Origin: a virus
Taxonomy: Duplodnaviria; Caudoviricetes
Virus record (IMG/VR): IMGVR_UViG_3300037751_000149
Span: 1 to 52,411 of that record
Direction: 5' to 3' (one strand)
DNA length: 52,411 bases
Part shown: positions 1-50,098 of the stretch, in pieces
Layout of the letters: the number at the start of each line of letters is the position of its first letter
How positions within the stretch are numbered: position 1 is the stretch's first letter
The notes under the pieces: generated by a model
Told to the model about the DNA's origin: nothing
The model's input: only the letters and a program-made list of their open reading frames with translations
The model's database searches: none
Translations under genes and position numbers: made by a program

Positions 1-21
1 GATAATCTGTAAAATACCCAC
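1..21 (-). CDS. 5' end of a gene running off the left edge (putative cassette ORF, MGILQII...)
   Basis: GTG at 19-21 with GGGAGG (28-33) 6 nt upstream; only 7 codons visible. Confidence 0.45.
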
Positions 22-39
22 TTTGTGCCTCCCTATAGT

Positions 40-127
40 GGCTAACAAAAAATTCAGTGCGACCGCGAGTAGCCCTGCTATATCACCCGCCAACGGTGGC
101 GCGGTCGCGGTAATTTAGGCGTTATGC
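40..127 (+). mobile_element. attC: integron attC recombination site (88 bp)
   Basis: R'' GGCTAAC (40-46), 5-nt spacer, 8-nt L'' ATTCAGTG (52-59), perfect 9-bp stem GCGACCGCG/CGCGGTCGC (59-67/100-108), 7-nt L' CGGTAAT (108-114), 6-nt spacer TTAGGC, R' GTTATGC (121-127); canonical attC box spacing. Confidence 0.85.
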
Positions 128-1816
128 GGCAGCCACCATTACCGGCTTCCCGGTAGCAGCAGCCAAAACATGCCGAGATATTCCGTTGCAGATCGCCGGA
201 AAATCGCAGGCCGAATACAGCTTGGCGTTCTTCTCAATGCGGGCAGCGAACCCCAGAGACTCAAGAAAATCTGACGAGACATTAAACCCGAGCCTGCGGT
301 TGATCTCCCCGAGATTTATCACGGCACGGCGTTGTTCAGGAGAGGAGGTGTTTTCCGCTGGTAGTGATGATGGGGGGGGCGGAGATTCTTTTGCGTCTTG
401 TGTTGAGACGGTGGCTGGCTGACTCTGTTCAGCCTTTACTTTCTCCGCCGCCTTGGCTTCTTCCTCCGCCCGGATCTTCTCGCGCTCTCCCTCCAGACGC
501 TTTTCCTCCGCCGCCTCATGTGCGTCGATCCTCTGCGTGACGATGGCCTGGAACGCTTCGATTCTGTTGGTGATGACAATCTGTTGCATGTCGGCGAACA
601 GAAAGGCGTGGTCCTTTGATTTCTCCTTGAACCACGCAAGTTTATCGCGAACATCCTTGGCCTGTGCGTCGGCCTCGATCTTGCCTGTTGCCAAGGCCAC
701 ATCTGCCTTGTCCTGAATGCTGGAGATTGTCTTGAGCCCCTTGATCGCCCCGCCGAAATCTGGGGCCGACACGTTGAGGGTAATCGGCTTAATCTCGGAC
801 TCAAGCGCCTGGACATGCTGCACGAAAGCCGTGCGCGCCGCAGTGACGATAGCTGTCTTGCGGTTCTCCTTCTCGGCCTTGATAACCTTCTCCAGCATGA
901 GACGGGTATCTCTCGCCGTCTTGGCGTATGCTGCCACTGTGCGGCGCATGGCATCCACGTCAGACGCTTGCGCCAATGCGTTGGCCTCGGCTGCTTCCAG
1001 CGCGTTCTGTGCGCTCACAAGCACCTTGACAGCGGCCTCGGCGTTGGCAAAGTCCTGGTCTGTTTCCGGCTTGAGGTTGATCCGCTGGACAAATTCGCCC
1101 AGCTTGGCACCGAAAATATCCAAATTGGATAGGATGGTAATGGCCCCAGAGGTTTGGATTGACAGAGCCGGCAGGGCCTCGGTTGTTTCCGCTACCGGAG
1201 CAACAACCACTTCTGCCGGTACGTATTCGGCCAGGTCTTTTTCAAACTGTGTCCAGCCGGCCAAGATGCGCTCAAACCACTCGGTATCAGGCAGGACTTC
1301 CATGCTGACCATTTTTTCCTCGGTGCCATCTGAGACTGTGAAGATCAACATTTCGGCGCCAGTTACCATCAAGTTCTGGTAGCACTGCGGCTTGTGCTCC
1401 TCCGGCAAAATCCCGTTGCGCACGGAATCGGCCAGCTTTTCGTTCCACTGCTTATGCTCCCAGGCCACATCACCAGCCATGGTTTTTCCGTCGCAGGACG
1501 CCGAAATCTCCCCCCGCGAACAAACCACGGGGTAGAGTTTCCGGCCAAGCTGCTTCTCAACAACTGGTCTGGCCATGGCTTCTACTTCATGCCCATAGTC
1601 CAGAATGTTTTTCTGCACCCAATCGCAGAACTCCTTCCCGATACCAGTTGACTTCAGGTGTAGCAGTTCGGTGCGGGTGGTTGTCTTGGAAAGGCCAAGC
1701 ATGGCCGCTGCCTCGCTTGTCCCATGGTGATTGAGCCGGAACGCGGCCCACTCTGGAGAACCCTGGACAAGTTCGTGTTCTTCAAGATCAAAAAGCTGAA
1801 ATTCCTTGAGATCCAT
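122..1816 (-). CDS. YqaJ-like viral recombination exonuclease with long coiled-coil C-terminus
   Basis: QGSPEW, GTSEAAA, GHEVE, ASCDG, WEHK, Q-x3-L motifs; start MDLKEF chosen on GAGG-type SD; adjacent to recT. Confidence 0.85.
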   Translation of the reverse strand: MDLKEFQLFDLEEHELVQGSPEWAAFRLNHHGTSEAAAMLGLSKTTTRTELLHLKSTGIGKEFCDWVQKNILDYGHEVEAMARPVVEKQLGRKLYPVVCSRGEISASCDGKTMAGDVAWEHKQWNEKLADSVRNGILPEEHKPQCYQNLMVTGAEMLIFTVSDGTEEKMVSMEVLPDTEWFERILAGWTQFEKDLAEYVPAEVVVAPVAETTEALPALSIQTSGAITILSNLDIFGAKLGEFVQRINLKPETDQDFANAEAAVKVLVSAQNALEAAEANALAQASDVDAMRRTVAAYAKTARDTRLMLEKVIKAEKENRKTAIVTAARTAFVQHVQALESEIKPITLNVSAPDFGGAIKGLKTISSIQDKADVALATGKIEADAQAKDVRDKLAWFKEKSKDHAFLFADMQQIVITNRIEAFQAIVTQRIDAHEAAEEKRLEGEREKIRAEEEAKAAEKVKAEQSQPATVSTQDAKESPPPPSSLPAENTSSPEQRRAVINLGEINRRLGFNVSSDFLESLGFAARIEKNAKLYSACDFPAICNGISRHVLAAATGKPVMVAAA

Positions 1817-1817
1817 A

Positions 1818-2009
1818 TTATTCACCTTCCTCATTGTATCCACAGGCATCACATACCAGCGGGTTATGTTCGCAGTTGCCGCATGGCGGGTTGATGTGGC
1901 ATGAACAGTTTTCAACCGGGGCATAGTGCATCTTGCCAAGACACCCCGGCTCCGAGCAGGTATCGCCCTCTTCTAAACAATCAACTCCTCCCCATTGTTC
2001 TGTTTTCAT
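1818..2009 (-). CDS. small Cys-rich (zinc-binding) hypothetical protein
   Basis: CSCHINPPCGNC and CDACG motifs; ATGA overlap with recT stop. Confidence 0.7.
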   Translation of the reverse strand: MKTEQWGGVDCLEEGDTCSEPGCLGKMHYAPVENCSCHINPPCGNCEHNPLVCDACGYNEEGE

Positions 2010-2938
2010 GCCCCCTCCTCTTCCCACGCGGCAATCTGCATTTGCTGCTCATCGGTCAGTATCATTGAGGTTTTCGCCGTGGCGATGATCGCCTTGGCTT
2101 TTTTCTTCCCACCCCTGACCAGGGGCTCCCACTCCTTCGCCAGCTCGGCAAATAGCTCGTCGGTGCAGGTCTCAAGTTTCGGCGCAAGCTCTTCCTTGCG
2201 CTTTGCACATAGGGAAAGAAGTTCTTTTTGTTCTTCTGCAGATAGGTCTTTCTGGCAGGACTTTACGTTGTCCTTGTACCAGGCGTTCAGGTCGTCAACG
2301 GTTTCAGTGGCATCAACCTCGGCGGCGTACTCGGCCAGGGTTTTCTTGACCGTGGAAACATCGGCACCCCTTCCTTTGGGGGTAGGGACAACAACGGCCT
2401 CTTGATAGTCCTGTGCTTCCTCTGCCGAAATGATACCCCTGAGAACATCCGGCCATACATCACGCAGGGCAAAGCCACGGGACCGCATCTGCAACATGCG
2501 TTTCGGGTACTGCTTCCACGGGCCTTCCTTTCCCCAAAGTTTCGCGGTTTCCGCGTCGGCCTTGGAAAACCTCAAAACCTGCTCAGGGTTCCCGCGACGC
2601 TTTGCCTTGCAGATTGCCGTCATGGTGGCATCTTCAAACTCTTCAATGACGTACTCGCATGAGTGGTGCGCCCGGATCAGGGCCAGCATTGCGTCACCCC
2701 AGACCGAAGGACGGCCATTTATGACGGCAATATTTTGGAGCGCCTGCATTGGAGGCAAGCCCAATTCTGCCCCCATCTGGACGGCAACCAAGACATTCCC
2801 CGGCTTGCCCTTGAAGTCTTTCGGAACAATGTCGCTCTGGGCAATAATCTTGGCGTACTCCATGGCTTCGGATAGATTCCTGGGGGAAAGGGAAAAGTTT
2901 TCTTGTCTCACAACTGGCAATGTCTCTTCGGGACTCAT
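2006..2938 (-). CDS. recT: RecT-family single-strand annealing recombinase
   Basis: VPKDFKGKPGN, GAELGLPPMQALQNIAVINGRPSVWGD, WKQYPKRMLQMR-RGFALRD. Confidence 0.9.
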   Translation of the reverse strand: MSPEETLPVVRQENFSLSPRNLSEAMEYAKIIAQSDIVPKDFKGKPGNVLVAVQMGAELGLPPMQALQNIAVINGRPSVWGDAMLALIRAHHSCEYVIEEFEDATMTAICKAKRRGNPEQVLRFSKADAETAKLWGKEGPWKQYPKRMLQMRSRGFALRDVWPDVLRGIISAEEAQDYQEAVVVPTPKGRGADVSTVKKTLAEYAAEVDATETVDDLNAWYKDNVKSCQKDLSAEEQKELLSLCAKRKEELAPKLETCTDELFAELAKEWEPLVRGGKKKAKAIIATAKTSMILTDEQQMQIAAWEEEGA

Positions 2939-2953
2939 GCTGCATCTCCTTTT

Positions 2954-3157
2954 TTAAGCGGCAAGCCGCCGCACTGCTTCGATGTGTGCCTGCTTTTTTA
3001 CCTGTTCGTGGTCGTCAAACTGCGGGTTGTTACAATCTGGGCAGAGGCAATAATTACGGTTTACCTCCCACCCGTGGGGCTTGGGATCTTCGCCCCACAG
3101 AAAAGTCTCGTCCTCGGCTGGGCAAAGATCGCACTTAAAAATGATCTTGACGCCCAC
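2954..3157 (-). CDS. small zinc-finger protein, paralog of 4207-4371
   Basis: CDLC...WGEDP...GW...CLCPDC. Confidence 0.7.
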   Translation of the reverse strand: MGVKIIFKCDLCPAEDETFLWGEDPKPHGWEVNRNYCLCPDCNNPQFDDHEQVKKQAHIEAVRRLAA

Positions 3158-3642: not shown

Positions 3643-4188
3643 CTACTCTTCCGTTTCCTCGGTGAACAGATCTTCCTTGACGTACCGGAGGGCATAGCCG
3701 TTTCTCTCAACCGCCTTGAGGCAGACCTGCTCGGTCTGGTCCTTGACGTACTGGAGGGCATCGCCGTTTCTCTCAACCGCCTTGAGGCAGACCTGCTCGG
3801 TCTGGTCCTTGACGTACCGGAGGGCATAGCCGTTTCTCTCAACCGCCTTGAGGCAGACCTGCTCGGTCTGGTCCTTGACGTACCGGAGGGCATCGCCGTC
3901 GCTCTCAACCGCCTTGAGGCAGACCTGCTCGGTCTGGTCCTTGACGTACCGGAGGGCATAGCCGTTTCTCTCAACCGCCTTGAGGCAGACCTGCTCGGTC
4001 TGGTCCTTGACGTACTGGAGGGCATCGCCGTTTCTCTCAACCGCCTTGAGGCAGACCTGCTCGGTCTGGTCCTTGACGTACCGGAGGGCATAGCCGTTTC
4101 TCTCAACCGCCTCAATCGCCAATTTTCCAGACAATTCACACTTGATAGACAATTTCTTCCATTTTTCGTACAGTCCGATCAGTTTCAT
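3643..4188 (-). CDS. DUF4116-like helical repeat protein
   Basis: 22-aa repeat AVERNG(Y/D)AL(R/Q)YVKDQTEQVCLK, ~6.6 copies. Confidence 0.8.
   Translation of the reverse strand: MKLIGLYEKWKKLSIKCELSGKLAIEAVERNGYALRYVKDQTEQVCLKAVERNGDALQYVKDQTEQVCLKAVERNGYALRYVKDQTEQVCLKAVESDGDALRYVKDQTEQVCLKAVERNGYALRYVKDQTEQVCLKAVERNGDALQYVKDQTEQVCLKAVERNGYALRYVKEDLFTEETEE
3674..4112. repeat. 66-bp coding tandem repeat, ~6.6 near-identical copies
   Basis: TCCTTGACGTA recurs at 3674, 3740 and onward with 66-bp period. Confidence 0.95.
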
Positions 4189-5788: not shown

Positions 5789-6931
5789 CTATGCGTTGTT
5801 GTCCAAGTCGCGACCCGTTGCGTTCTTGACTGCCTGCTTGTTGAGAAACCGCTCGTAAGAATCGGTCTCCTTGAGTTTACGGACCAGGCCGATCTGCCCC
5901 TTGCCCGTGACCTTCGTGGTGAATACTGTCCGTGGCCCGTTGCTGTTGTCGTTCTCGTAGGTCTTCTCTTCCACCGTGAACCACCCGCGATCCATATATT
6001 GCTGGTACGGGAGGTTTTTGTAGTCGAGGATCTTTTCGCTCCGCAGCCATGCAAAGGTGTTGTTCCGCCCCATGGTGATCCCGGCGTTGGGGAGCATTTT
6101 GCAGAAATCACCCAGCAGGACGCTATTGGTCGCCGCAGCCACCGAGTTGTGAAACTCAACCATCGGCTTCTGCGCCTCGATAACGGCCAAGGCTTCTGTG
6201 CGCCCCTGCTCCGCAATAAGGCGCCCCTCTTCCGACTCAATGGCAAGCTGGAGGATTTCAAGCCTGGACATAGAGGCAGGGCTTGGAACGATGGCGCCCT
6301 TCTTATAGGCGAGGAAGGTGTTGATTACCTGGAGATAAAACGATGGGCTGATCCAGTTGGCGTAGGCCACGGCCAGTTGCTCGGCGGCGAAGGTGCCTGG
6401 GGCATTGCCGCCCTTTACGGTGTTGATGCAAGTGGTTGATTTATCGCCAAAGCCCGCCAGAGGGCTTTGGGCCTCAAGCTCACGAATAAGATCCTGTGTC
6501 GGCTCTGAGGCAAGCCACTTACTTGGCCTCTTGTGATCTCCTGTGCTGCTGGCCCGGTGCAGGGCGTTAAGGTTGAACCGTCCTTCGCTATCGGTGGTGA
6601 TTTCAATTCCTGCAATGGTGGGGAGATTCATTGGCTTCCTCCGCTTGGCTGTGGCCTTTATCTTGCCGGGCTGGACATCTTTTTTTATTGACGGGGCCGG
6701 GACCGGCGCCCCCTTGATTGCTGCGGTTACGAGCCGACATGCCGATTCAGAAAGGAAGTATTTCCGGCTAAACGCCCTCTCGCTTGCGCCCTTAAACGAT
6801 CCCCGCGCCTCAAAATCTTGCGGGGAGACAAGTCTGCCGGAAACCACCAAGCCCTCGATCACCCCTGCAACATAGGAGTGCGACTTGCCGAGTCTCTTGT
6901 GCAGGTCTACGCTGGAGAAGGTGAGATTCAT
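5789..6931 (-). CDS. phage antirepressor: Rha-like N-terminus, KilA-N, KilAC/ANT; strong internal start at 6631
   Basis: GRFNLNALHRA...PSKWL...YANWISPSF (KilA-N); KPMVEF...GRNNTFAWLR...PYQQYMDRGWF...TKVTGKGQ (KilAC). Confidence 0.85.
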   Translation of the reverse strand: MNLTFSSVDLHKRLGKSHSYVAGVIEGLVVSGRLVSPQDFEARGSFKGASERAFSRKYFLSESACRLVTAAIKGAPVPAPSIKKDVQPGKIKATAKRRKPMNLPTIAGIEITTDSEGRFNLNALHRASSTGDHKRPSKWLASEPTQDLIRELEAQSPLAGFGDKSTTCINTVKGGNAPGTFAAEQLAVAYANWISPSFYLQVINTFLAYKKGAIVPSPASMSRLEILQLAIESEEGRLIAEQGRTEALAVIEAQKPMVEFHNSVAAATNSVLLGDFCKMLPNAGITMGRNNTFAWLRSEKILDYKNLPYQQYMDRGWFTVEEKTYENDNSNGPRTVFTTKVTGKGQIGLVRKLKETDSYERFLNKQAVKNATGRDLDNNA

Positions 6932-7170: not shown

Positions 7171-7244
7171 TTATTAGCGCATGGCTATCATCATTGCAAG
7201 CATTTTTTAGCGGATAGCGCATTTTTTTATTTAAGCCATGCGCT
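7171..7244. promoter_or_regulatory. cI/cro switch: leftward promoter and putative operators
   Basis: minus strand TTGCAA-N17-TAATAA before cro; AGCGCATGGCT (7176-7186) inverted at 7234-7244, with degenerate copy AGCGGATAGCG (7209-7219). Confidence 0.65.
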
Positions 7245-7279
7245 TACAATGCCGAGACGGTGCAATATTGGGGGGAATC

Positions 7280-7993
7280 ATGTTACAAGACGTTTCGGGA
7301 GTATTTCGCGCCGCTTTTTCGCATATCATTAGCGAGGCAAAACGCGGAACACAGGCCAGAGTTTCAAAGGAAACAGGTCTCTACGGGAGCCAGGTTGGCG
7401 ATCTGCTTTCAGGGCGGAGGCCAGGCAGCGAAGAGCAGCGCCGGGCTATCGCCGCCGCCCTCGGTTACACCTACGAAGACATGCTCTCCCTGGGCCAGTG
7501 GATTCTTGAAGGAAAAGCCCCTGCGGAGTTTCAAAAAACCGGCCAGGTCCACCAGGCAAACATCCGCCTCACCGCAAATGTCACGGCAGGCCCGGACATC
7601 ATCGGGGGGATTCCCCTGATCTCATTTGTTCAGGCGGGAGGATGGGCGGAGATCGTGGACAACCTCCAGCCTGGAGATGCCGAGGAATGGATACCCAGGA
7701 TTTCCGGTGTCGGGCCTCGTTCGTTTGCGCTGCGCGTGTCCGGCACCTCCATGGCGCCGGATTACCAGCCGGGGGATATTATTGTTGTGGATCCCGACTG
7801 CCAGCACAACAACGGATCGCTGGTGGTTGCCCGGCTCAATGGCGACAACGAGGCGACGTTCAAGAGGATCGTGATCGACGGGGGCAAAACCTTTTTGGAG
7901 CCGATCAACCAGCGGTATCAGCCGCTTGATATAACCGGCAGGGACGTGACTATTTGCGGGGTGGTCCGGCAGATGTTGAGAAATGTTCAATAG
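7280..7993 (+). CDS. cI: CI-like repressor (HTH plus S24 autopeptidase)
   Basis: VQAG cleavage site, FALRVSGTSM (Ser), EATFKR (Lys). Confidence 0.92.
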   Translation: MLQDVSGVFRAAFSHIISEAKRGTQARVSKETGLYGSQVGDLLSGRRPGSEEQRRAIAAALGYTYEDMLSLGQWILEGKAPAEFQKTGQVHQANIRLTANVTAGPDIIGGIPLISFVQAGGWAEIVDNLQPGDAEEWIPRISGVGPRSFALRVSGTSMAPDYQPGDIIVVDPDCQHNNGSLVVARLNGDNEATFKRIVIDGGKTFLEPINQRYQPLDITGRDVTICGVVRQMLRNVQ

Positions 7994-8007
7994 AGGGGGA
8001 GGCGTGG

Positions 8008-8598
8008 ATGTTTGGATTTCACAGCCAGAAGAAAGATTCTGAATTCGCAGAGGGGTTGGCGGCAACTGCGCTGGTATTCTCGGGGGATGAAGACGCTGGC
8101 AATCTCATGGTCCTCATCTCGGCACCTTCAGAAGAGGGCTTTCACTTCTCTGTCTCTGCGCTTAATTTTTATCTGGCTTCACTGGCGGTGCATTCATCGC
8201 TGTCAATATCAAAAGATCGGAAACAATTCATCCTTGACACCATGCTTTCTTTTTTCACTGGGAAATTGAAAAAATATGAAGATAATTTTTCAGTGAGGGA
8301 CGCTATTAGAGAAAAAGATGAACTGGATTATGTCAGAAGAAAGTGGGGAGATGAAGATTGGGAAACAAATATGCACTCCCTTGTTTCCACCTTCTTCGAC
8401 AAGCGAATAAATGACTTCAGAAAGGCGACGGAAAGATACCCAAAAAACCCAGTTGCTGCGATAGGAGCAACATTCTATGTGCATGTTCACGGCGGAAATA
8501 ACTCAGATGCAGCAGTATCTCAAGGGGCCACACACGCTTTCATTGAGTCCACGTTTGACGCTATTTCCTATGCTTGCAAGTCAGAAGGCCCACGTTAG
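8008..8598 (+). CDS. hypothetical protein, AT-rich, lysogeny operon
   Basis: GGAGG SD directly after cI; visibly lower GC than flanks. Confidence 0.7.
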   Translation: MFGFHSQKKDSEFAEGLAATALVFSGDEDAGNLMVLISAPSEEGFHFSVSALNFYLASLAVHSSLSISKDRKQFILDTMLSFFTGKLKKYEDNFSVRDAIREKDELDYVRRKWGDEDWETNMHSLVSTFFDKRINDFRKATERYPKNPVAAIGATFYVHVHGGNNSDAAVSQGATHAFIESTFDAISYACKSEGPR

Positions 8599-8959
8599 GA
8601 GATTGTTGTGTGTTTGGCTCTCGTTTACCCTGCTCCTTCTCCCCTCTTTGGCCTTTTCCTTTCCCGAAAAGCACTACCAAGAACAATGGTGCGCCAACCA
8701 GGGAGGGCAAGCAGAGGTTGTACTTGCGGACCAGACCCGGGCCGACTGCATCACGGCCACCCACGCCATCGAGTTCGATTTCGGGAGGAAGTGGGCCGAG
8801 GCCATAGGCCAAGCGCTCTATTATTCGCTTCAGACAGGGAAGAGGGCCGGGGTCGTGCTGATCCTCGACGGGCCGAAGGATCGGAGATACTGGATTAGGC
8901 TCAATAGCACCATCCAACATTTCGGGTTGCCGATTGACACCTGGGCAATTGAAAAATGA
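8570..8959 (+). CDS. signal-peptide-bearing PD-(D/E)XK-like protein (start uncertain, 8570 or 8603)
   Basis: hydrophobic leader ending LAFS, then E...RADC...AIEFD...EAIGQALYY. Confidence 0.6.
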   Translation: MLASQKAHVRRLLCVWLSFTLLLLPSLAFSFPEKHYQEQWCANQGGQAEVVLADQTRADCITATHAIEFDFGRKWAEAIGQALYYSLQTGKRAGVVLILDGPKDRRYWIRLNSTIQHFGLPIDTWAIEK

Positions 8960-8976
8960 CAGAGGGGAGGAAAACC

Positions 8977-9528
8977 ATGAAAAAGACAATCTTGATCGCG
9001 ATTCTTCTGTTGGTCCCAATGGTTGCACGGGCGGAGCTGGTTGTTGTGCCAGATCCACGATATGTTGACGAGGCGGCGCGGCAACGTCTTGAGCAAACAC
9101 AGAGGGTGGAGGCGGCGCGGCAAGTATTTGACCGGCAGAGACAGCAAGATCAGGAGGCGGACAGGAAGGAAGCGCAGCAGAAGATTGAAGCCTACCAGAG
9201 AAGTCCCGCAGGGATACAGCAAGCAAAAGAAGAGGCTGCTAGGGCGCAGATAATCCCAGGCAAACGTGAGGCTCGGCAGAAAAAAGGCGGTAGATATGTG
9301 GAGGCAGTGGAAAGCCAAGATCGTCAACACGAAGCTAGGGCCAAAAGAGAAGCGCAAGCCTCAGAGGACAACCAGCGAAAACAACAAGAGGAAGACAACC
9401 GGAACCTAAGCGAAGGATACGCCCCAGCCGCAGGCGGAAGGACAAACATAAAGACCGGGGGGTTTCAGCAAGACGTCGGCGGAGGTACATACTTCGACAT
9501 TCAGACCGGGCAATACCATTACAGGTAG
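8977..9528 (+). CDS. exported coiled-coil protein
   Basis: MKKTILIAILLLVPMVARA signal peptide; Q/E/R-rich body; GGAGG SD. Confidence 0.75.
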   Translation: MKKTILIAILLLVPMVARAELVVVPDPRYVDEAARQRLEQTQRVEAARQVFDRQRQQDQEADRKEAQQKIEAYQRSPAGIQQAKEEAARAQIIPGKREARQKKGGRYVEAVESQDRQHEARAKREAQASEDNQRKQQEEDNRNLSEGYAPAAGGRTNIKTGGFQQDVGGGTYFDIQTGQYHYR

Positions 9529-9535
9529 GCATACA

Positions 9536-10579
9536 GTGTCCGTAAAATCACACCCCACCCAAAAGGGGCATTGGGTAGTTGACTACTACCTGCCCGGCAA
9601 GGAGAACGGGAAACGCATACGGGTCCGCGACAACCTGCAATGCACATACGCCTATGCCTTGGAATACGAGAAGTCTATCCGCCGCCAGAAATCAGGGGGG
9701 GCCGGGATCAACACGATCAACCCCACGATCTCCGAGGTCATGCCGCTGTTTTTGGATTGGGTCGCCCTGAACCGGGCGGAGAAAACGCACAAGGATTACG
9801 TCTGCTGCTCTAAGTACCTCCGCGCCGTGTTCGGTCGGCTGCGGGTTAAGCAGATCACCCCGGCGCATATCACCGAGTACCAGCGGTATCGAAACGGCAA
9901 GCGGTGCGCCATCAAAAAAGAGATGATCTATTTTCACCGGCTCATCGACTGGATGGGAAAAAACGACTACTGCCAAAAGGAGGGGCTTGGATTCAAGATC
10001 GAGACCGCCAGATACCAGCGCCCGCAGCCAAAGGTGTTCTCGGCGGAAGAGGCCGAGAGGTTCCTTGCCCAGATAAACGACCCCATAAAGCTGGCCCTGA
10101 TCCTGATAATGTACGAGGGCGGGGCGAGGTTTGACGAGGTTGTTCAGCTTCGGTGGGGGCAAATTTCCTTTGCCAGCGACACGATAATGGTGGTGGGCAA
10201 GGGGAATAAAGAGCGCCTGGTGATGCTGCCGGCCATCGCCAAGGCCATTCTCCAGCCCCTCGCAGGAGACCCCCACGCCGACGTCGCGCCCAATCCAAAA
10301 ACAGGGAAACCGTACACCTCATTCAAAACCGTTTTCCGGGGGGCCTGCCAACGCGCCGGGCTCCACGGGCTCACCCCGCACAAGTTGCGTCACTGCTTCG
10401 CCACGGATGTTCTTGAGTCCTGCGGCGACCTCCGCCTGGTCCAAGAGCTTCTTGGCCACACCGACATCAAAACCACCCAGATTTACACCCACGTTATCAA
10501 GGCCCGCAAGGTCTCCGGCGTTTCCACCATGCTCAAGATGCGGAAAGCCGCCCGCGACAGGAAAAGTGAGACAATTTGA
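9536..10579 (+). CDS. int: phage tyrosine integrase
   Basis: GARFDE (R), GKGNKER (K), HKLRH, LLGH, TQIYTH; abuts attP. Confidence 0.95.
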   Translation: MSVKSHPTQKGHWVVDYYLPGKENGKRIRVRDNLQCTYAYALEYEKSIRRQKSGGAGINTINPTISEVMPLFLDWVALNRAEKTHKDYVCCSKYLRAVFGRLRVKQITPAHITEYQRYRNGKRCAIKKEMIYFHRLIDWMGKNDYCQKEGLGFKIETARYQRPQPKVFSAEEAERFLAQINDPIKLALILIMYEGGARFDEVVQLRWGQISFASDTIMVVGKGNKERLVMLPAIAKAILQPLAGDPHADVAPNPKTGKPYTSFKTVFRGACQRAGLHGLTPHKLRHCFATDVLESCGDLRLVQELLGHTDIKTTQIYTHVIKARKVSGVSTMLKMRKAARDRKSETI

Positions 10580-18190: not shown

Positions 18191-21100
18191 TTAGGCTGCC
18201 CGTGTCCGCTCAAACTTGCTCGGTTTTGCGTTCTGACGCAGCATGTTACGGATGCTGTTCATGGTGATTGGCCGAATATCCGGCCTTCCCGCGCCAAGGG
18301 CAAGCTCGTTATACCGGGCGATCTCCTTCAATGCCTCCGGGGTGATCCCCTTGCCCTGCAAAAACTCCCGCTTGATCTGATTGTTGATCTCGGATCTTCG
18401 CTCCTGGTACTTGGCCGCAACCTGTTTTTCGTTCCACTGCTTTTCGCGGATGCCGGAAAGCCTGGCCGGGTTGAAGGAGAAGAACCGCAGGGCCGCATCG
18501 AGGCTGTCAGCTTTTAGTGGCTCGTCGCCGTAGAACACCTGGCCGTAATTGCTGGTGGTGATCCCCTCGGTGGCCTCGCGGGCTGCCTTAAACGCGGAAC
18601 CAAAGCCGGTTGGAACCAGCGCCTCGACTCCCTTCCAGACTTCACCCTTGGCAAGATGCTTCACTCCCTTCCATGTATCGGTGGCAACCGCACCAGGCGC
18701 TCCGCCCAGCTCACTGAGCTTCGTCGGTATCGGGTTGTTGGCCTGCAATGAACCCTTGAGGTTGATACCTATCATCCCGGCCAACCCTTGGCGGGCAAAG
18801 GCATCCGAGCCGAAAGTATCTTCCGCCCACTTGTAGTATTCTTCTTCCGGGTCGTCGCCGCCTATGCCCATTGCCTGAGCCAGGGCCATCAAGGCGGACA
18901 CAGGCAGCGAGGCCCCGGCCCCTGCGAGGATCGCAGGAGACAACATCAGGTACGCCGCCGCCGTCCGTTGCCTGTCCCAATACAGGTAGCGGTCGAGCCC
19001 CATTTCTTCCGGGGCATTGGCGAAGAATTGCTTGCGGGCGTTCAGCAGATAGTTGTGGCCAAACTTGGCAAACACATAATTCAATCCAAGGATTCGCCCC
19101 AGATCCCCCCCCCGAGTGAATGCCGGCCGGTCCCCTTTGTCATATCGCCCGTGGGCATCGCTGGAAATCTCCTCAGCCTTTTCCCACAAGTCAGGCTCGG
19201 AAAGCTCCGGGTGTTTCTCCTGCGCTGCCTTGTAAGCGGCAAAGATCGTCATGGCTCGGTTGGCTTTTTCGGTGATACCGAAGAGGGCCATTCCCCATGT
19301 GGTGAAGGTGTTCCACTTGTCGCCAAACTCCGTCCTTAATTCGCGGGCCGCCTCTGCGTTGTACTGCGCATCGTCCAGCCCCCGGTTGGTTATCTCCTGC
19401 AAGATACCCCTATCCTCGGCGCTGAGTGTTCCCTTCCCAGATAGATACTTCCCGTATGCCGTCGCGGCCTTGCCAATATGGGCAAACGCTTTCCATGGTG
19501 TAATGTCGAGGGCCGAAGACATTGTGCCCGGAACACCTGTGACCATGTTGGTCAAGTTCACCGCCGCCGAAGAGACCCGGAAGGCCAGGAACTTCTGCAC
19601 GGCCAACCCTTTCATAGTGCCGACTATCCGGTCAAGCTGCTCGTCGTTCCGCAGCATATCCACGATGTATTCCACCCCGTCGCGGTAAGCGTTCTTTTGC
19701 AAGCTGGCGTCCACCCCTCGGTCTTTTACGAAGTCCAGGTATTCGCCATACTCCTTGCCCGGGTTCTTTTCTTCCCAGGCATCCCAAGACACGTCGCGCC
19801 CGGTGAAGGCAAGCATTAAGTCCCGTGCCATATCCCGCTTTGCCACCCCGGCCGCCACCCCTTTTGCGTACTGGATCAACGCTTTTTGCGGATCATCCTC
19901 ATATCCCTCCCAAACATCGCCCCCTACCCGGTGCATCCGGGAAGAGAGGAAGCCGCGCTGCTGGATAATTGCCGCCGCCCGCTGGGTAAGCAACAGGTTG
20001 ATGTGCTGGCTGGCTTTTATGTCCGCGCTGTCTTTTTTGTCTACCACACTCATAGTCGAATCGAGCACGGCATCCAAAGATGCAACAAGTCGGGGAGCCG
20101 AAAAGACATCCTCGGAAAGGGAGGCGTCTTTCTCCACGGTCACATCATACCCCTGCTTGGTCAGCCTGCTGGCCTCTCTCCCATTGGGAGAGAGTTGGTT
20201 GACAAGATCCCGCCATCCCGGCTTTTCGTCTGTGTCGTCCACTCTCAGGTCCGCGTCAAATGGCTTTCTGATGGGATTCTCGCCATCCTTCTTGGCGACC
20301 AACACATAAGCCCCGTCCCGTCGCTGGCGCGGCATGTAGGAGCCGACCAGTTCGTCCATGGCCGCGATGGACTGCTTTACCGTCATGGGCCGCATCTCGG
20401 CATCGGTTCTTTGCTTTACCCGGAGGTTGCCGAAAGCCTTTTGCCCCCGGACTGTTCCGCTCCTTTTCCTGGCCCAGGCTTTCGCCTTCGCTTCATCCTT
20501 AAACATCCGCTCAACGGGGTCTGCCACCTTGCTCCCGCCGCCCTGAATCATCACAAACCATGACTGCATCTCGGCAAGCCTGTCCATGGCGTCCGCAGCC
20601 TGCTGCTCGGTAGCAAAAAGGGCAACCGGCTCTTTCTGCCCTTCCGCATAAATCCCATACCTGCCGGCTTCATCGATGGTTTTCCCGCTTGCGAACGGGT
20701 CAGGAAGCCCTGCCTCTTTTGCGTCGGACTGCATCTGCACCATCTCGGCCCGCAATTCGTTCAGCGCCCGATTGGTTAATTCTCTGCCCAAGCGGATGTA
20801 ATTCACCCCTTCGGGGGCAAACCCTATTTTCTCAAGATATTCGCTTTCCTGATCGTAAAGAAAAGCAATCGCCTTGTCTCTGTCGTTAAAAAACTCCCCG
20901 ACCATCTTGCCGGCCGGACTCAACACCTTGTACTGATCCCCCTCCATCCGCAACTTGAACGAATACCCAGACTGGTCGGTTTCTTTCAGGTATTCCTTGA
21001 CGGCCTCATATTCATCCGGGGCGGACTCCTTCAGCTTCTTTCCCTGCCTGGTAAAGTCGGTTTTTTCAGCAAAAGCAGAGGCCTCTTCCTTGCTCTTAAA

Positions 21101-24100
21101 CTCTTGTTTGGTGCCGTCGCCGGTTGTTGCCAGATAGGTGCCATGTCCCAGGGGCTGGATTGATGCGGCACCCAGAATCTCGCTTTCCTTGGCAAACTTG
21201 GCTTTCTGCCGGTTCATTACCACATCAAACATGCGGCCCATCGCCGGGACATCCTTGAAATAATAAGCCGGGGTTGAAAGCAGGCGCTGCCAAAAAGTGA
21301 AGTCCTTTTTTTTCTTCTTGGTGGTAGACTTGCCGCGCTTTTCTACGAAGTCGGCAACTTCTTCCAGGTTCTCCAGGGACATGGGTGATCCCACATACTC
21401 CGCGCTATCTTCGCGCACCAAGTGTCCGGCCAACCCTTTCCGGCCAGAAAGCATACCCACCTCCGGCCTTATCCCCCTGTTGGCCAAAAACTCTCCTGAC
21501 TGTAGATGGACATCATGTAGTAGGTCAGTCTTCACCGCCTCCTCGAAGTTCAAGGCGGAGTTGTCTGGGACATTGACGGCAAACAACCTTGTTGACCCGG
21601 TCGCTCTCGCAAATTTTCTCAGCATCCCGGCCATGCGAATTTTACTTAGGGGGCTTACTTTTTCAACGGGGACGTCCATTATGCCAGTTACTAAAGATTC
21701 ACCGCCTGAGACACCGATAACCTGGAAGGTTTCTTTTGCCCCCTGTAGCTGCGCGGCGACACCGGCCAAGTGGTCAACGCTATTGATTTTCATGCCCAGG
21801 ATGGGGTGGGGGGTGGACGGTTCGTTTTTCCCGTAACGGTCAGCGGCCTGCGTTATGCTTGCCGGAAGTGGTTTAACCTGGACATCAAAACCTTGGATAG
21901 TGGCATAGCTGTCGTGGTTTATTACCACATGGCCAAGAAATAAATCTGGGAGTTCTGCGGCGATGGCGAGGGTGGTTTCCTTATCTTGTGCGCTTGGGGT
22001 GGGGTTGCCGCTGGGGTGATTATGCAGAAGGTAAAAGCCGTCCGCCCCCGACTTTTCCCCCATCTTTTGGATTTGGTCAACGCCATCTAGCAGGGTTGCT
22101 CCGCCGATAAATGCGGCGGATGCTCCAGGCAGCCGCGATGTAACACCGGTGATATTTACCACGCGCCCATCTTTTACAAAGACATACCTGTTCGTCTCGA
22201 AAGAGGGGTTGCGGAATATCTGGCCGATAATTGCCAGATCGGCGAGGCTCTCTACTCGTTGTCCGATGAGATTGATTTTGCTCTGGTCTTTGAAGGATTT
22301 GGCGATATTATTACCAAGTACGGTCCCAGGCAGCCCCCGCAGGTAGCCAGCGGCTTCTCGCTCTGCCCTTTCGTAGTTTCCTTGTTGTGCGCCGGTAAGG
22401 GTTTCGACTCTTCGCCCATATTCTCCCGCCTCCCGCCTGGAAATATTGTTTTTTGTATTGTCGCCCTCAATGGCGTAAGAGTCAAGCCCGGAGTACAGCG
22501 CCACGCCCTTGTCTGACTTCTCAATGATTCTGGCCAGCTTCTTTTTATCCCGCACAAGGGACGCTTCGATCTCAACCCGTTTAGCAGGAAGTATCTTGCC
22601 CTTCAGTAAGGTTCGCGCTTCGTTAATGCTGGCCCGGATTTGTTGTTCTTCTGTGGTCTGATGGCGAACCTGCTCAGGATAACGATCTACCGATTCATCC
22701 GTATTCTTTCCGGGCGCGTAGTCTGCTGGGGTCGCATCAGTTATCGAATATCCGGACTTCTCGTCATATTCTGCGGCCTTCGCAAGCAATCTTTCTCTGT
22801 GAGCCTGCATGTCTTGGGCAGATTCACCCGTCTGTTTGTCGCCGGTCATGTCATCCTGGGTTGACAAATCATGGGGGCCATTTGTCGTTTTTTCCGCTTC
22901 AAGCCGCCCAATCTCCTTCTTGTTCAGGGCCGGGTAATCATTCAGTCTGGCGATCTTCTCGTCTATTACGGCAACACGGGCCTCTTCTTTTGCGGACCGG
23001 TAAACATCTTCAAGGGTTGACCTGTTCTTCTCCTGAACAGGCGTCACCTCCCCGGTCTTCAATTCAATCTCTCCTATCTCTGTCCCAGTAACGGAGTGGG
23101 CCACCGTAGCTATTCCATCACTATCAACGCGATATTCAAACTGCTTGAATTGCCGTGAACCTGACTTGTCCTGCTTGTTTATGGCAACCCTGGCAATGTC
23201 GTCACCAGTCACCCCTATTGCTACGCCGGCAGATGGCTCAGTCCTTTCCGCCTCAAGCCGCTCCTTGGCCTGCTGAACCAGGGCCAGCTTCAGGGCGTTT
23301 TCCGGGTCTTTGGCCAGCATGGCACGGGCGTTTTCAAGCTCGGCCTCGCGGGTTGAGGCGGTCAGATTGTCGCCGGTTTTGTCACCAGAAATGTCACTGG
23401 TTTTGTCCATGTTATCTTCTTGTTTTACCGCAACTTCTTTCTTGGCATCTTCGTTAAAATGTCCAGCGTTTTGATCGGTGTTCAGCTCTGCGTTGTCGGC
23501 CTGGGCCACAGGAGCCACAGTATCAGCCTTATCAGTCTGGGCATGGGGGGTCTCCTTCGCTGAAGATAAAACAGCTTCGGATTTCTTTTTTATCTTGGCC
23601 AACTTGGCTGCGGCCTTGCTAGCGATCTCTTCCTGGATCGCTTCTTTGGCGGCCTCACGCTTGGCGGTCTTCCCGGTCGCATCGTCTACTATCTCCTGGG
23701 AGGAAATACGGGCAGACTCCCAAAACCTTGCGTCGCTGGTGAGCTTCCCGCGAACACTGTGGTCGCTCGTTCTTTTAAGCTCTGCTACTTTCTGCGCTGC
23801 CAGCGATAAGGCTTCTTCCGGCGATAAAGTTGCCGCTGTCTTTGCGGCCCACTCTCTTCCACCCTCCAGCGGAGACACAATCAGCGCAGCCCTCACCGCC
23901 GCCTCATGCTTCTTGGCAAAAACCAGACCGCCGCGCTTGGTATTCGGGATACCAGTGGGCGCAAAACCAGCGTCTTTCAATTTGGCTCGGAGTGTGGGGG
24001 TGTCGCCCAAGGCAATAATGGACTTGGCGCCAAGAGGTTCTACTGTGAATTGGAGGGATGAAGCAGGGGCCGATTCGCCAGGCTGGCTCGGCTGGGCCTT

Positions 24101-33264: not shown

Positions 33265-34257
33265 TCAGACCTCTTCTATAAGCACATTGCGGCCGGAATA
33301 CAGGAAAAAAAACCTATAATTGGTTGCGCCTCCAGTATGCGTACTTTCTGAAGTGAACGAGCTAATGGTGCTAAGTTGATTTTTTATCGGGCCGATCCAT
33401 GTCGCTGTTGTGCTGTAAAAAATTCTCTTTGCCGTGTATTTTCCAGAAAGTGAGTCTCCCGATGCCGGGCCTGTTACCATACTGTTGTCTGGGTTCACAG
33501 CAGAATTTTTTGTGCCCGCATGGTCTATTTGGAGCGCAATAGACCCGGCTGCATTTGCGCTATTGACAACATAATTTGTGTTTTCAAGCGCAAACTTACT
33601 TCCCGCAGCATAAGAGGCCACAAAGGCTGTGAATGTCACAATGTCCCCAGCAATTTCCGCAATGACAACCCGCTCTATATTGGCCGTATCCCGGACAAAC
33701 AGCTTTGTTCCGACAGCCCATTCCCCGGGAACTGCGGTGAAGGTTACGGCTACGCTCGACCCTGCTGTTATTGCATCTGGAGCAACCGTTACCGCTTGAG
33801 AAATTGGTGAGTCCGGCATCCATCCGCCAAATCCGGCATTGTAGTTTGTTGCATATTTTGCTATTCCGATAAAATTATCCAGATCCCCGTACACCCACAT
33901 CACATTGTTTGTGGACAGGGTGTTCTGCCAGTTATTTATTGTCCCGTAAGACTGAACTCCAGCGTGTGTGGTGTTGTTCCAGTACAGATACCCAATAATG
34001 TCGATGTACCCCGACTTGTAGAGAACCTTAAAATACAAATCTCTCTGCCCGTCTTCTCCGGGGGAATACATGACAAAATAATCGTTGATCGAAATGGTAT
34101 TCTCATTCACTGCATAGACGGCATCATGCAACGTCCACCCGATCCCCGTAGTGGAGTAGTCATAGGTGCCGTTCCGCTTGCACATGAAATCACGAAACCG
34201 CACAAAGGTTTCAATGGGGTTGTTGCACGAAACGGCAATCAGGTTGGCATAGGCCAT
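33265..34257 (-). CDS. putative receptor-binding/tail protein
   Basis: N/T/Y-rich ORF, lower GC, GWTLHD motif. Confidence 0.6.
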   Translation of the reverse strand: MAYANLIAVSCNNPIETFVRFRDFMCKRNGTYDYSTTGIGWTLHDAVYAVNENTISINDYFVMYSPGEDGQRDLYFKVLYKSGYIDIIGYLYWNNTTHAGVQSYGTINNWQNTLSTNNVMWVYGDLDNFIGIAKYATNYNAGFGGWMPDSPISQAVTVAPDAITAGSSVAVTFTAVPGEWAVGTKLFVRDTANIERVVIAEIAGDIVTFTAFVASYAAGSKFALENTNYVVNSANAAGSIALQIDHAGTKNSAVNPDNSMVTGPASGDSLSGKYTAKRIFYSTTATWIGPIKNQLSTISSFTSESTHTGGATNYRFFFLYSGRNVLIEEV

Positions 34258-48045: not shown

Positions 48046-48871
48046 ATTTTTTCCTCAAAAGATTTCGCGCCATTGCGTCATTTTCCAAAACCTGTGCCTG
48101 GTGTACGGTGTTCGCCCTGATTGCGGTTCCTGGCTGTGGGGGTGCTCGGCGCGGCCTGTTCTGCTCACCGCCAAGCCACCGGGTTATGTGCCCCCTGATT
48201 CCAGCAGCGGTTTTTCTCTTGGCTGGGTTGTCCGTGTTCCACTGCCGGATTTCCTTGAGTGCCTGGAGAACATCAACCGCCTGGAAGGTGTCTTGCCATT
48301 GGTCGATGTCAATCTGGGTGATGTTGAAATTACCGTCCCTTTTTATCAGGGGGATGGTGAGTATTGCAGGCTCGACAATTTCCGGCAAAAGAACGGCTGG
48401 CGATGGGCCGGATTCTTCCGGCTCGGCGCAAGTCTTTTCTTCAGGAATCAGTGAATCAGGAATCAGTAACAAGGAATCAGGAATCAGGGGGATATTCACC
48501 GTTACTTCACCGTGAATATCAGGAGTATCAGAATTACAACAAGATAAGGTGCGCTCTGGAATAATTGACTTCTTTTCCGTGTGGTGCGGCTGCTGGTGTT
48601 TTTGGAAGTTTTCGATCTGAATATACTGCTCACCGTCAACCACATATCTATCCACAAACTTTAACCGTGCAAGTTTCGTGAGTTCACCGTTAACGTCGCA
48701 ATCATAGTAAGGGAACAGTTCAGCTTTAATTAACCTGGGCTTATCCTCAAGACGGCCATCTCTATCCGCAAGGCACCACAACCCAGCAAATAGAAGCTGG
48801 GATACAGGGCCAAGGTCTGCAAGATCGTAGTTTTTAAAGAACCCTGGCTTGATATTTCTTGACCTAGCCAC
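47939..48871 (-). CDS. phage replication initiator (O-like)
   Basis: MARSRNIKPGFF...LLFAGLWCLADRDGRL...NFQKHQ; C-terminal WNTDNPAKRKT..GI...ITRWL. Confidence 0.85.
   Translation of the reverse strand: MARSRNIKPGFFKNYDLADLGPVSQLLFAGLWCLADRDGRLEDKPRLIKAELFPYYDCDVNGELTKLARLKFVDRYVVDGEQYIQIENFQKHQQPHHTEKKSIIPERTLSCCNSDTPDIHGEVTVNIPLIPDSLLLIPDSLIPEEKTCAEPEESGPSPAVLLPEIVEPAILTIPLIKRDGNFNITQIDIDQWQDTFQAVDVLQALKEIRQWNTDNPAKRKTAAGIRGHITRWLGGEQNRPRRAPPQPGTAIRANTVHQAQVLENDAMARNLLRKKYGDSDQGNSGRSDPAITHPLQISQQNGSAVGNFDG
48445..48533. repeat. GAATCAG iteron-like repeats, putative replication origin
   Basis: GAATCAG at 48445, 48453, 48460, 48474, 48481 plus degenerate copies, in the linker of the initiator gene. 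Confidence 0.6.
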
Positions 48872-49148: not shown

Positions 49149-49334
49149 TCAAATTAAGTTTTTGTCTTTCGCCATCCACTCCGGCATCGTCACCACCACC
49201 GTCTGCCCGACCTCGCCCTCATATTCAAGCTGCGATTTCGGCAGCCACTCGGTTACATCTCCGTCCGTTACCTGGATGGCACGCTCTGATTCCCGCAGGA
49301 TTTCTACTGTGATTTCGGTTGTGGCTTGGCTCAT
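49149..49334 (-). CDS. small acidic hypothetical protein
   Basis: ESERAIQV...WLPKSQ...MPEWMAKDK; ATGA coupling. Confidence 0.75.
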   Translation of the reverse strand: MSQATTEITVEILRESERAIQVTDGDVTEWLPKSQLEYEGEVGQTVVVTMPEWMAKDKNLI

Positions 49335-50098
49335 GCGGATACCTCTGGAAACGCTTGGCCCTGCAACTCTTCCGGGATCGGTGCGCCTGCGCTCATTTGC
49401 TTCATAAAGAATGGGGTGCCGGAAACAGCACATTGCGCCTTGAGATATCCGGCCCAATCTTTTTCCATGATCCGAGCTTCCGGCCCCGATTCTCCCCCAC
49501 AGATAACCCAATGAATCTTTGGATTATCATCGGCATGTTCGTGGACACCTGGGGTTTGATAAACTCCAGCCAAGGCGTCGTATGTTGCAGCTCCGCCCAA
49601 ATCAATTCTTGTTAAATCGACCTCACCAACCATGGGCTCAACGGAAACAAAAAGAACTGGTGCCCCATGGACAGAAAAAAGGATAGGAATACGCTTGTTT
49701 GCCACCTCCTGATTCTCGGCGGTAACGCCAAGCCACACGTTTTTAAATGGCCATCCGACAGGCAACCGACCGGCGATGTTCTCTGGCCGCTTCGTGAGTA
49801 TCTGGTATGTCAGGTGCGGAGTCTTGCGGATGATCTCCCACGCCTCGTCGCGCCACGGGTCAGCTTCCTTAATGAAGAAGTCTGACCATGAGCAGATAAA
49901 TACCTTGGCCGGTTCTTTCCATTTCAACGGGAGATTGAAGGTGGCAGGCTTGGAGCGGATCACCGTTGCCGGGTCTTGCCCGTACCTGTTTTTGTCCCGG
50001 TACATATAGCAATTCATGCAGCCAGGAGACACCTTATGGCAACCCTGCCATGGGTTCCATGTGTTGTCGGTCCATAATATTCCTGAGTTCTCAGCCAT
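49331..50098 (-). CDS. DUF5131 (phage Gp37/Gp68) radical-SAM-like protein
   Basis: WTDNTWNPWQGCHKVSPGCMNCY, LTKRP, WVICGGESG, PFFMKQ. Confidence 0.92.
   Translation of the reverse strand: MAENSGILWTDNTWNPWQGCHKVSPGCMNCYMYRDKNRYGQDPATVIRSKPATFNLPLKWKEPAKVFICSWSDFFIKEADPWRDEAWEIIRKTPHLTYQILTKRPENIAGRLPVGWPFKNVWLGVTAENQEVANKRIPILFSVHGAPVLFVSVEPMVGEVDLTRIDLGGAATYDALAGVYQTPGVHEHADDNPKIHWVICGGESGPEARIMEKDWAGYLKAQCAVSGTPFFMKQMSAGAPIPEELQGQAFPEVSA

Follow-up and report, generated by a model that had tools for sequence, protein, structure and literature searches.

Integrons are commonly presented as bacterial systems in which cassettes are inserted for transcription from a promoter beside the attI site, and the left end of one phage genome fragment raises the question of whether such a system can also be built into a phage, with its cassette genes facing the other way. 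The fragment, hereafter the window, is the whole IMG/VR record IMGVR_UViG_3300037751_000149 (52,411 nt; linear class; estimated completeness of 67%). A sequence-only reading of this DNA had placed an attC recombination site at its left end, fused to the stop codon of a yqaJ exonuclease gene and with the gene of the adjoining cassette antisense to the site. The analysis described here supports that claim: the site at 40–127 is, with good probability, an attC of functional type, the distal (last) one of a cassette array carried by a temperate phage, in which the genes are antisense to attC. It is taken for an attC because it is the top match of the window, with ends at exactly 40–127, in searches with two home-made covariance models, because an integron integrase is encoded on the same contig, and because junctions at G/TT, the predicted crossover, occur in other assemblies. 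The parts of the site, and the gene start to its left, are the following.

40–46, plus strand: R'' box GGCTAAC, the inverse core site on the presumed top strand (from the sequence; positions 1–7 of the covariance models R1 and R2 described below).
47–58, plus strand: 5' arm, with spacer AAA at 47–49, L'' stem at 50–54, bulged C55, A56 and an internal loop at 57–58 (from DNA folds).
59–108, plus strand: 9-bp GC stem (59–67 with 100–108) and a 32-nt variable terminal structure (68–99; from the folds).
109–120, plus strand: 3' arm, with an internal loop at 109–110, T111, L' at 112–116 and the unpaired spacer AGGC at 117–120 (from the folds).
121–127, plus strand: R' box GTTATGC, with the predicted crossover at G121/T122; TTA at 122–124 gives, on the minus strand, the stop codon of yqaJ.
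1–34, minus strand: predicted start of a cassette gene, with a Shine-Dalgarno sequence (AGGGAGG, 28–34), GTG at 19–21 and 7 codons to the contig end.

The two boxes conform to the patterns RYYYAAC and GTTRRRY, each with one departure from the consensus, and GTTATG[ACT] is also present in attC sites of cellular arrays. They are complementary at five of seven positions, and the R box forms 5/7 pairs in the DNA fold, which is an imperfect hairpin with an R box, an unpaired spacer, an L box and a variable terminal structure. The unpaired spacers measure 3 nt (47–49) and 4 nt (117–120) and are followed by a 5-bp L stem (50–54 with 112–116), the single bulge C55, the pair A56–T111, a 2x2 internal loop and the 9-bp stem, the arms being 21 nt each. 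C55, which would be an extrahelical G on the bottom strand, is the ninth nucleotide after R'', as in cellular-array attC sites, and the motif GGC GTTA at the 3' end is common to attC sites of other loci. The boxes and coordinates given by the sequence-only reading hold, as do the yqaJ stop inside the R' box (TAA on the minus strand within GTTATGC) and the translation start to the left of R'', in which 6 nt separate AGGGAGG from GTG and the frame is open through the remaining codons. The box spacing that it had drawn needs a slight correction, given the spacers, the L stem and the C55 bulge of the folded geometry.

Boxes and a hairpin by themselves are not above chance. A naive scanner, which required a stable constrained fold and both boxes with at most one mismatch, turned up 18 candidates across the 52 kb of the window, about one per 3 kb, and was rejected as evidence for being unspecific and blind to strand. 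The DNA fold z-scores of the site are modest (-2.67 for the plus and -1.54 for the minus strand). Rfam gave two chance-level matches in window 1–3000 at E up to 10, none of them at the site, a null that is uninformative given that no attC family was matched in a control on a true array (locus L044, 2500–9500). The site thus stands above chance only in view of its covariance-model rank, the linked integrase and the natural recombination junctions. The first of the home-made models, R1, was built from 19 attC sites of 7 cassette arrays located upstream of IntI relatives (~50–55% identity) in bacterial genome contigs; these sites are oriented opposite to intI, and the open reading frames (ORFs) of the arrays lie mainly on the strand of the attC hit, also opposite to intI. 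Its imposed structure leaves 75% of the cells paired versus 64% in shuffles, and none of 500 shuffles did equally well. With its filters switched off, R1 was run on both strands of the window and returned 40–127 on the plus strand as its best match, at full length (18.5 bits, E ~0.09), where true sites outside the training set score 17.7–41.6 bits. The second model, R2, rebuilt from 113 matches in 55 loci with this site excluded, also puts 40–127 (plus) on top, with 23.7 bits and E ~0.005. On the minus strand of the window neither model finds a match at E up to 10. Scoring with a covariance model, which the sequence-only reading had named as a check, therefore came out in favor of the site. 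The only other weak match in the window (13.2 bits with R1, 9 bits with R2) falls on 48464–48507 (plus), a 44-nt palindrome with perfect boxes, CAGTAAC ... GTTACTT, inside the replication-initiator gene, and is probably a chance match.

These results also bear on the idea that the site is just an intrinsic terminator or intergenic hairpin of the yqaJ operon in which R'' and R' boxes arose by chance. The minus-strand RNA does show a GC stem followed by six U residues, the GC-rich window yields the 18 box-hairpin candidates mentioned above, and attC sites are thought to hold weak terminators, so that both roles may coexist (Qi et al., 2023; PMC9892861). However, a terminator scan with a loop limit of 8 left the site unflagged and flagged five sites elsewhere versus 3.7 expected; the RNA fold has a z-score of -0.43, with 67 of 200 shuffles equally stable; and the U run starts 5 nt past the 9-bp stem, directly after an extended stem with A/U pairs. 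A terminator would moreover leave unexplained the top rank in two attC models, the many contexts found at GTT and the sixfold array with a permutation signature at a related locus, L022 (see below), which makes this explanation highly improbable.

The reading of the site as an attC finds its second support in the gene content of the contig, and its ends matter here as well.

51671–52411, minus strand: integron integrase gene intI (TIGR02249), of which the first ~72 model positions are lost at the contig end.
122–1939, minus strand: YqaJ-domain exonuclease gene with a long C-terminal extension and an uncertain start (PF09588, 35.2 bits, cutoff 22).
1–127, no strand: left assembly-graph vertex, the same as the first 127 nt of contig G003, non-homologous from 128.
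52285–52411, no strand: right assembly-graph vertex, the same as the last 127 nt of G003.

The IntI fragment of the window comprises the C-terminal 246 residues and scores 320.7 bits against TIGR02249 (curated cutoff 265; model positions 73–314 of 315), and the intI copy of L022, with 97.6% DNA identity, is full length (345 aa) and reaches 382.4 bits; both are above the cutoff for integron-type tyrosine recombinases. Relative to the window, internal deletions in intI are seen in G003 (~103 nt, at 33994–34001, locus L024, with an 8-nt microhomology) and in contig G004 (~225 nt, locus L026), and the integrase appears to be decaying in some lineages. At the other end, the YqaJ-domain ORF has 605 codons (it also matches TIGR03033 with 40.3 bits, under the cutoff of that model) and, as a backbone gene, borders the array at its distal end.

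G003 is a second viral contig, of 34,120 nt, which shares with the window an exact 127-nt identity at each end and in the same orientation. From the way assemblers behave, a k=127 assembly graph would have contained two branch points joined by alternative paths, one represented by the window and the other by G003, and any reading of the first and last 127 nt of the window must allow for these shared vertices. The array is missing from the assembly because each contig end is a 127-mer branch point that this second phage variant shares. For the same reason a direct circular joining of the window ends, which would be in frame, was considered and dropped. The two phages are identical through base 127, the last of R', and unrelated from 128 on, and in G003 the gene that stops 4 nt from the box encodes a DnaB-type helicase. 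With the ends of the window joined via the missing DNA, the minus strand would read yqaJ, the site, unassembled DNA, intI, ninB and late genes. The window being the entire record, no leftward extension could be obtained from it; scans of viral_contigs for such an extension matched only G003, and one Logan contig of run X3 reaches 273 nt left of base 1. A megablast search of window 1–3000 against phage GenBank records gave no match. Because 20 loci with yqaJ relatives contain no attC match, the adjacency of the site and yqaJ is specific to this phage. YqaJ homologues in seven other contigs (from the L003–L017 set) end in AA followed by the stop codon, in the R'-box-like context GC[AGC]T[AG]A[CG], and one may speculate that the box at the yqaJ end is a native gene end used as a secondary recombination site.

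What an assembled array of this type looks like can be seen in L022, which has the backbone of G003 (94% identity over 4.9 kb on the DnaB side and 99% downstream of intI); the homology with G003 reaches 3 nt past the box beside DnaB and ends at G003 base 118. Six model matches (29.0, 23.9, 23.2, 18.9, 17.7 and 12.1 bits) lie there, each of them on the strand opposite intI, in the stretch from DnaB to an attI-like junction that precedes the intI ATG by 70 nt. The seven ORFs of the region, that is, the last backbone gene and six cassette genes, are all on the intI strand, and 4/6 of the cassette ORFs have family matches.

Backbone: DnaB (Pfam).
Cassette: C5 methyltransferase (Pfam, 3.7e-25).
Cassette: 113-aa ORF (PHROG, 3e-7).
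Cassette: 55-aa ORF without family match.
Cassette: DUF5131 (Pfam, 7e-69).
Cassette: 85-aa ORF without family match.
Cassette: PAPS-reductase-like (PHROG, 1e-35).

None of the six L022 cassette genes (0/6) lies on the attC top strand, where the genes of an ordinary integron read from the Pc promoter would be. All six cassettes are bounded by attC sites, and on the top strand each starts with TTNNNN, its first six nucleotides being the exact complement of its own R'' (start/R'' pairs TTAGCC/GGCTAAC, TTATGC/GCATAAC, TTAAAT/ATTTAAC, TTATGT/ACATAAC, TTGGGC/GCCCAAC and TTAGCG/CGCTAAC), and within one linear attC the boxes fail to match. This pattern is the mark expected of cassettes that circularise and re-enter at G/TT. 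It also fits the suggestion, made from the window alone, that the imperfect complementarity of R'' and R' there stems from a past recombination, the complement in L022 being to the cassette's own and not to the neighbouring R'' in 6/6 cases. Four of the seven ORFs upstream of a box stop with a TAA inside it, as yqaJ does, and the other three stop 2–4 nt before it. The last cassette is followed by a GGCTAAC box, 70 nt and the intI start; more generally, the flanks of L022, L023 and L076 diverge at a GGCTAAC or GCATAAC box 57–70 nt before the intI ATG, and this attI-like box of divergence can be considered a putative attI, in the position that attI has in ordinary integrons; the corresponding position of the window phage lies past the contig end. 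In L023 the junction is followed by TTATGC. The layout recurs in L076 (IntI 83% identical), with two weaker model matches, and antisense cassette genes are indicated there as well.

Three side observations concern L022 itself. Two of its cassettes contain identical hairpin cores (5982–6038 and 7703–7759) with different R''/R' boxes, as if hairpins were homogenised and boxes kept their cassette-specific complementarity; a scan for the L022 hairpin core in search of other arrays matched only its own contig. DUF5131 is a cassette in L022 (7772–8494) and an ordinary gene without attC flanks in the window (49331–50098, minus strand), with a similarity that is 78% over a 384-nt BLAST segment and stops at the ends of the coding region. 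Finally, directly downstream of intI, where the window has NinB, L022 (10814–11467, plus strand) and also G003 contain a 217-aa tyrosine-recombinase-like ORF (phrog_216, phrog_1).

It also has to be considered that bases 1–121 are bacterial and that the phage integrated into a chromosomal integron of its host by attI x attC recombination, the site then being a hybrid attL. The window genes that bear on this are the following.

2006–2938, minus strand: RecT-family gene, upstream of yqaJ in the same operon (PF03837, 29.7 bits, cutoff 24).
7238–7993, plus strand: CI/LexA-like repressor (PHROG matches phrog_4 and phrog_1, given for the repressor and integrase region 7238–10579).
9536–10579, plus strand: conventional phage integrase (same PHROG matches and region).

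An attL would account for the several contexts in which the site is found and for the TTATGC that follows the attI-like junction of L023, and a Vibrio prophage with an attC site at either end has been reported (Qi et al., 2023; PMC9892861). Nevertheless, the window has a conventional integrase and a repressor of its own with no bacterial genes around them, the L022 array lies on one contig between phage genes (DnaB with 4.9 kb of shared backbone to one side, intI and its downstream genes to the other), the cassette genes seen belong to phage families, and phage genes lie on the intI side of attI and not on the cassette side. A hybrid attL is therefore very unlikely. Around the repressor, an operon running from 6982 to 122 (Ant-like gene, recT and yqaJ) is divergent from it and heads to the left end, and at the right end a NinB-like gene directly follows intI, with overlapping stop and start, beyond which DUF5131, replication, ParB-like, terminase, portal and tail genes occur on the intI strand. 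Two further ORFs of the minus strand stand out by their size or composition: that at 3643–4188, whose 181 residues comprise ~7 tandem units of 22 residues (...ERNGYALRYVKDQTEQVCLKAV...; DNA period of 132 nt), and a single ORF of 2792 codons among the tail genes (18191–26569), unusually long even for a tape-measure or fibre protein.

The third support for an attC, recombination at the predicted base, comes from public assemblies. Part of window 1–1200 is contained in 17 public runs, and the Logan contigs of four sediment metagenomes were aligned to the window. In two runs the summed depth of the site core (bins 81–120) is 6–7x that of yqaJ, and other DNA adjoins the site in the Logan contigs: two different left contexts precede 43, one context precedes 119, one right context follows 123, and two more, in addition to yqaJ and G003, follow 127. 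A contig of 19 kb from the same phage, with 4 differences over 1082 nt, consists in this region of 233 nt unlike the window, window 43–123, 668 nt unlike the window and window 119–1200, which corresponds to an extra segment of ~673 nt at GCG/TT between the site and yqaJ. In run X1, 30/30 letters after GTT are identical to the start of L022 cassette 5, and another left-hand context in that run has a Shine-Dalgarno sequence and an ATG on the minus strand right after the box. Natural recombinants joined at G/TT of R' are thus found in G003, in the Logan contigs and with L022 cassette 5, and the system looks active in nature because related phages have different arrays and cassettes are found swapped at the predicted crossover in public assemblies. 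The high depth of the core and the variable flanks on both sides would also suit a copy of a repeat unrelated to integrons, such as a repetitive extragenic palindrome or a miniature transposable element. Yet the site is present in a single copy in the window and in a single copy in G003, the breakpoints fall on conserved GTT/AAC triplets, the 6-mers flanking each ORF are complementary in 6/6 L022 cassettes, and such sites are seen only beside intI, so that a repeat is extremely improbable.

Whether the cassette genes are antisense depends on which strand of the attC is the top strand, a role that the sequence-only reading had assigned to the plus strand from the box spacing and that the plus strand very probably has. 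In an alignment-based scan, IntI relatives were found to be encoded in at least 573 viral IMG/VR contigs, of which 80 (loci L074–L153) entered the model survey; R1 returned 89 matches at E up to 1 in 76 of these loci, 85 of them upstream of and opposite to intI. The strand opposite intI also carries 6/6 matches in L022, 2/2 in L076 and 39/42 in cellular loci, and in the window both models match the plus strand only. The spacers AAA and (A)GGC of the plus strand, like the position of its bulge, agree with cellular-array attC sites, and the conserved junction beside intI in L022, L023 and L076 has the orientation of attI only with plus as top. In addition, the ORF of L022 cassette 5 is found in front of two distinct hairpins; with plus as top this is an ordinary reshuffle, and with minus as top it needs a hairpin swap inside the cassette.

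The alternative, in which minus is the top strand, the cassettes are ordinary sense cassettes and the integron merely has an unusual placement of intI, has to be set against these data, together with other points that weigh against an attC with antisense genes. The box pattern is its own reverse complement, and the flanking contexts and the permutation signature, being symmetric, do not discriminate between the strands. The fold of the plus strand is more stable by 2.4 kcal/mol than that of the presumed bottom strand (-19.1 versus -16.7) and contains a G.T pair, two features that Nivina et al. (2016; PMC5027507) associate with the attC bottom strand. A more stable bottom strand is found in 17/19 training sites and in 4/6 L022 sites, a trend that the window site does not follow. 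With minus as top the genes would, as in ordinary cassettes, follow a GTTRRRY-like box (GTTAGCC). Folding for extrahelical bases, as the sequence-only reading had envisaged, gave one at the usual ninth nucleotide, and the A at the second usual position (A62) is paired, where most attC sites of mobile integrons have two or three such bases in the bottom-strand L'' arm (Nivina et al., 2016; PMC5027507). The model scores of the site sit low among those of true sites, with E-values that are rough owing to shortened calibrations; the left cassette is visible for just 21 nt of coding sequence, and a plus-strand frame (2–118) is open across the site too; and the array between the two window ends is seen in no assembly of this phage, two exact-pattern scans of metagenome_contigs having come back empty. 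Against minus as top stand the lack of minus-strand matches, the position of the matches opposite intI, and the bulge, spacers, attI orientation and cassette 5, all of which fit plus, and that alternative is considered unlikely. The antisense arrangement is proposed for the window from 7 codons behind a strong Shine-Dalgarno sequence, is shown for all six cassettes of L022, and is indicated in L076 and at part of the viral sites described next.

How general this arrangement is was assessed with a stop-position test around the attC matches, from which matches with E > 0.3 were omitted and L046 was dropped as a duplicate of L047. A site was called sense when a top-strand frame of at least 60 codons stops between 60 nt before and 30 nt after the start of R'', and antisense when a frame of at least 60 codons on the other strand stops between 15 nt before and 4 nt after the start of the box at R'.

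Cellular arrays, 34 sites (9 loci): 26 sense, 0 antisense, 2 both, 6 none.
Viral contigs, 76 sites (41 loci): 20 sense (8 of them from one contig), 22 antisense, 19 both, 15 none.
L022, L076 and the window, 9 sites: 0 sense, 5 antisense, 4 both, 0 none.

Antisense-only sites are hence 22/76 in viral and 0/34 in cellular DNA (Fisher p = 1.6e-4), in a test that is crude, as a high G+C content favours long open frames and some viral contigs may hold host DNA. In many of the viral loci L074–L153, ORFs beside the attC matches are on the intI strand and end in the TAA of the R' box. This TAA is the stop codon of 16 of the 19 antisense ORFs listed, from the 22 antisense-only sites, and 6 of the 10 ORFs tested among those 19 match PHROG families, which include radical SAM, DHH phosphoesterase, DUF551, YopX and DUF1353. 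For 40 intervals outside L022, an orientation test based on the longest ORF gave 14 sense, 9 antisense and 17 unclear calls; it was replaced, as it called the Pfam-supported DUF5131 cassette unclear. It is about evenly balanced whether the site represents one instance of a distinct and widespread phage-type integron, made of intI, attI and antisense cassettes inside an early operon, read towards intI from phage promoters, with genes that often end in the R'-box TAA and cassettes that make up a pool of their own, of accessory and counter-defence phage genes that are reshuffled in lytic growth.

In the mechanism that these arrangements suggest, the array would sit between the early recombination genes (recT and yqaJ) and the phage's own intI, on the same strand. 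IntI would cut the folded minus (bottom) strand at GCATAA/C, between A and C, so that the TAA stop stays with yqaJ. Cassettes would enter at the junction beside intI and be lost or reshuffled through attC x attC events, and their genes, being on the bottom strand, would have the same direction as yqaJ, intI and the late genes. Transcription from the early promoter opposite the repressor would pass each hairpin into the cassettes, intI and the nin-like genes, with no need of a Pc promoter, and a single early transcript would mean that cassettes and integrase are co-expressed in lytic growth. Reading of the cassettes from the phage early transcript and their expression on induction, as the sequence-only reading had also supposed, are conclusions drawn from gene order. 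The U residues after each hairpin make partial termination, or a need for antitermination, possible. By means of the array the phage could swap accessory early genes, such as the methylase, the PAPS-reductase-like gene, DUF5131 and small phage ORFs.

In its parts, the phage site resembles bacterial attC sites, both mobile and sedentary chromosomal, in the RYYYAAC/GTTRRRY boxes, the unpaired spacer, the L stem, the bulge at the ninth nucleotide, the GAC motif at nucleotides 15–17 after R'', the variable loop, the GGC GTTA 3' end, the G/TT crossover, the linked IntI and the cassettes whose first 6 nt complement their own R''. It differs from them in having one predicted extrahelical base, equal arms and a presumed bottom strand that is not the stabler one, and the phage cassette genes, unlike those of the cellular arrays surveyed above (26 sense and 0 antisense-only of 34 sites), are on the opposite strand. 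In chromosomal integrons of the Treponema type, intI is inverted and on the same strand as the cassette genes, and the array lies downstream of intI with genes sense to attC. The phage integron shares with this type the common strand of intI and cassette genes, but its array is upstream of intI, at an attI-like junction, and its genes are antisense to attC; the plus-strand matches that occur downstream of intI in L106 and L110 look like the Treponema type. The location between replication or recombination genes and NinB with the late genes, as well as the swapping of small accessory genes at gene boundaries, recalls the mosaicism of the lambdoid nin region and of morons, from which the phage system differs in that the exchange would occur at attC sites by a dedicated site-specific recombinase and not by homologous or illegitimate recombination.

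Integrons in phages have already been published. In 10,705 phage genomes, three complete integrons, one In0 and 17 attC clusters were found, phage attC sites were shown to recombine with IntI1, and methyltransferase cassettes were proposed as a counter to host restriction; the complete cases were captured host chromosomal arrays, class 1 integrons on a P1 phage-plasmid or a cryptic prophage, and the cassette orientation was that typical of bacteria (Qi et al., 2023; PMC9892861). The system described here has in common with those an integron integrase, attC sites and cassettes in a phage genome, including a methyltransferase cassette, and differs from them, as far as the text of that study describes them, in that the whole array is antisense to attC, co-directional with intI and inside the early operon. 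Cassettes facing the promoter have not been observed in mobile or chromosomal integrons according to Nivina et al. (2016; PMC5027507), and a literature search, the scope of which did not extend to the supplementary tables of Qi et al. (2023), returned no description of phage arrays with antisense genes in the accessible text of the sources. What is new is thus the antisense cassette layout, which is possibly general.

This layout separates the rule that governs recombination orientation from the orientation required for expression, and it implies a pool of phage-adapted cassettes. Phages that are close relatives, with backbones 94–99% identical, carry different arrays, and DUF5131, which is a cassette in L022 and an ordinary gene in the window, offers a handle on cassette origin and may bear on how cassettes arise. 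If the layout is general, phages could swap anti-restriction and other early genes through their own integrons, mirroring the recent view of bacterial integrons as stores of defence genes.

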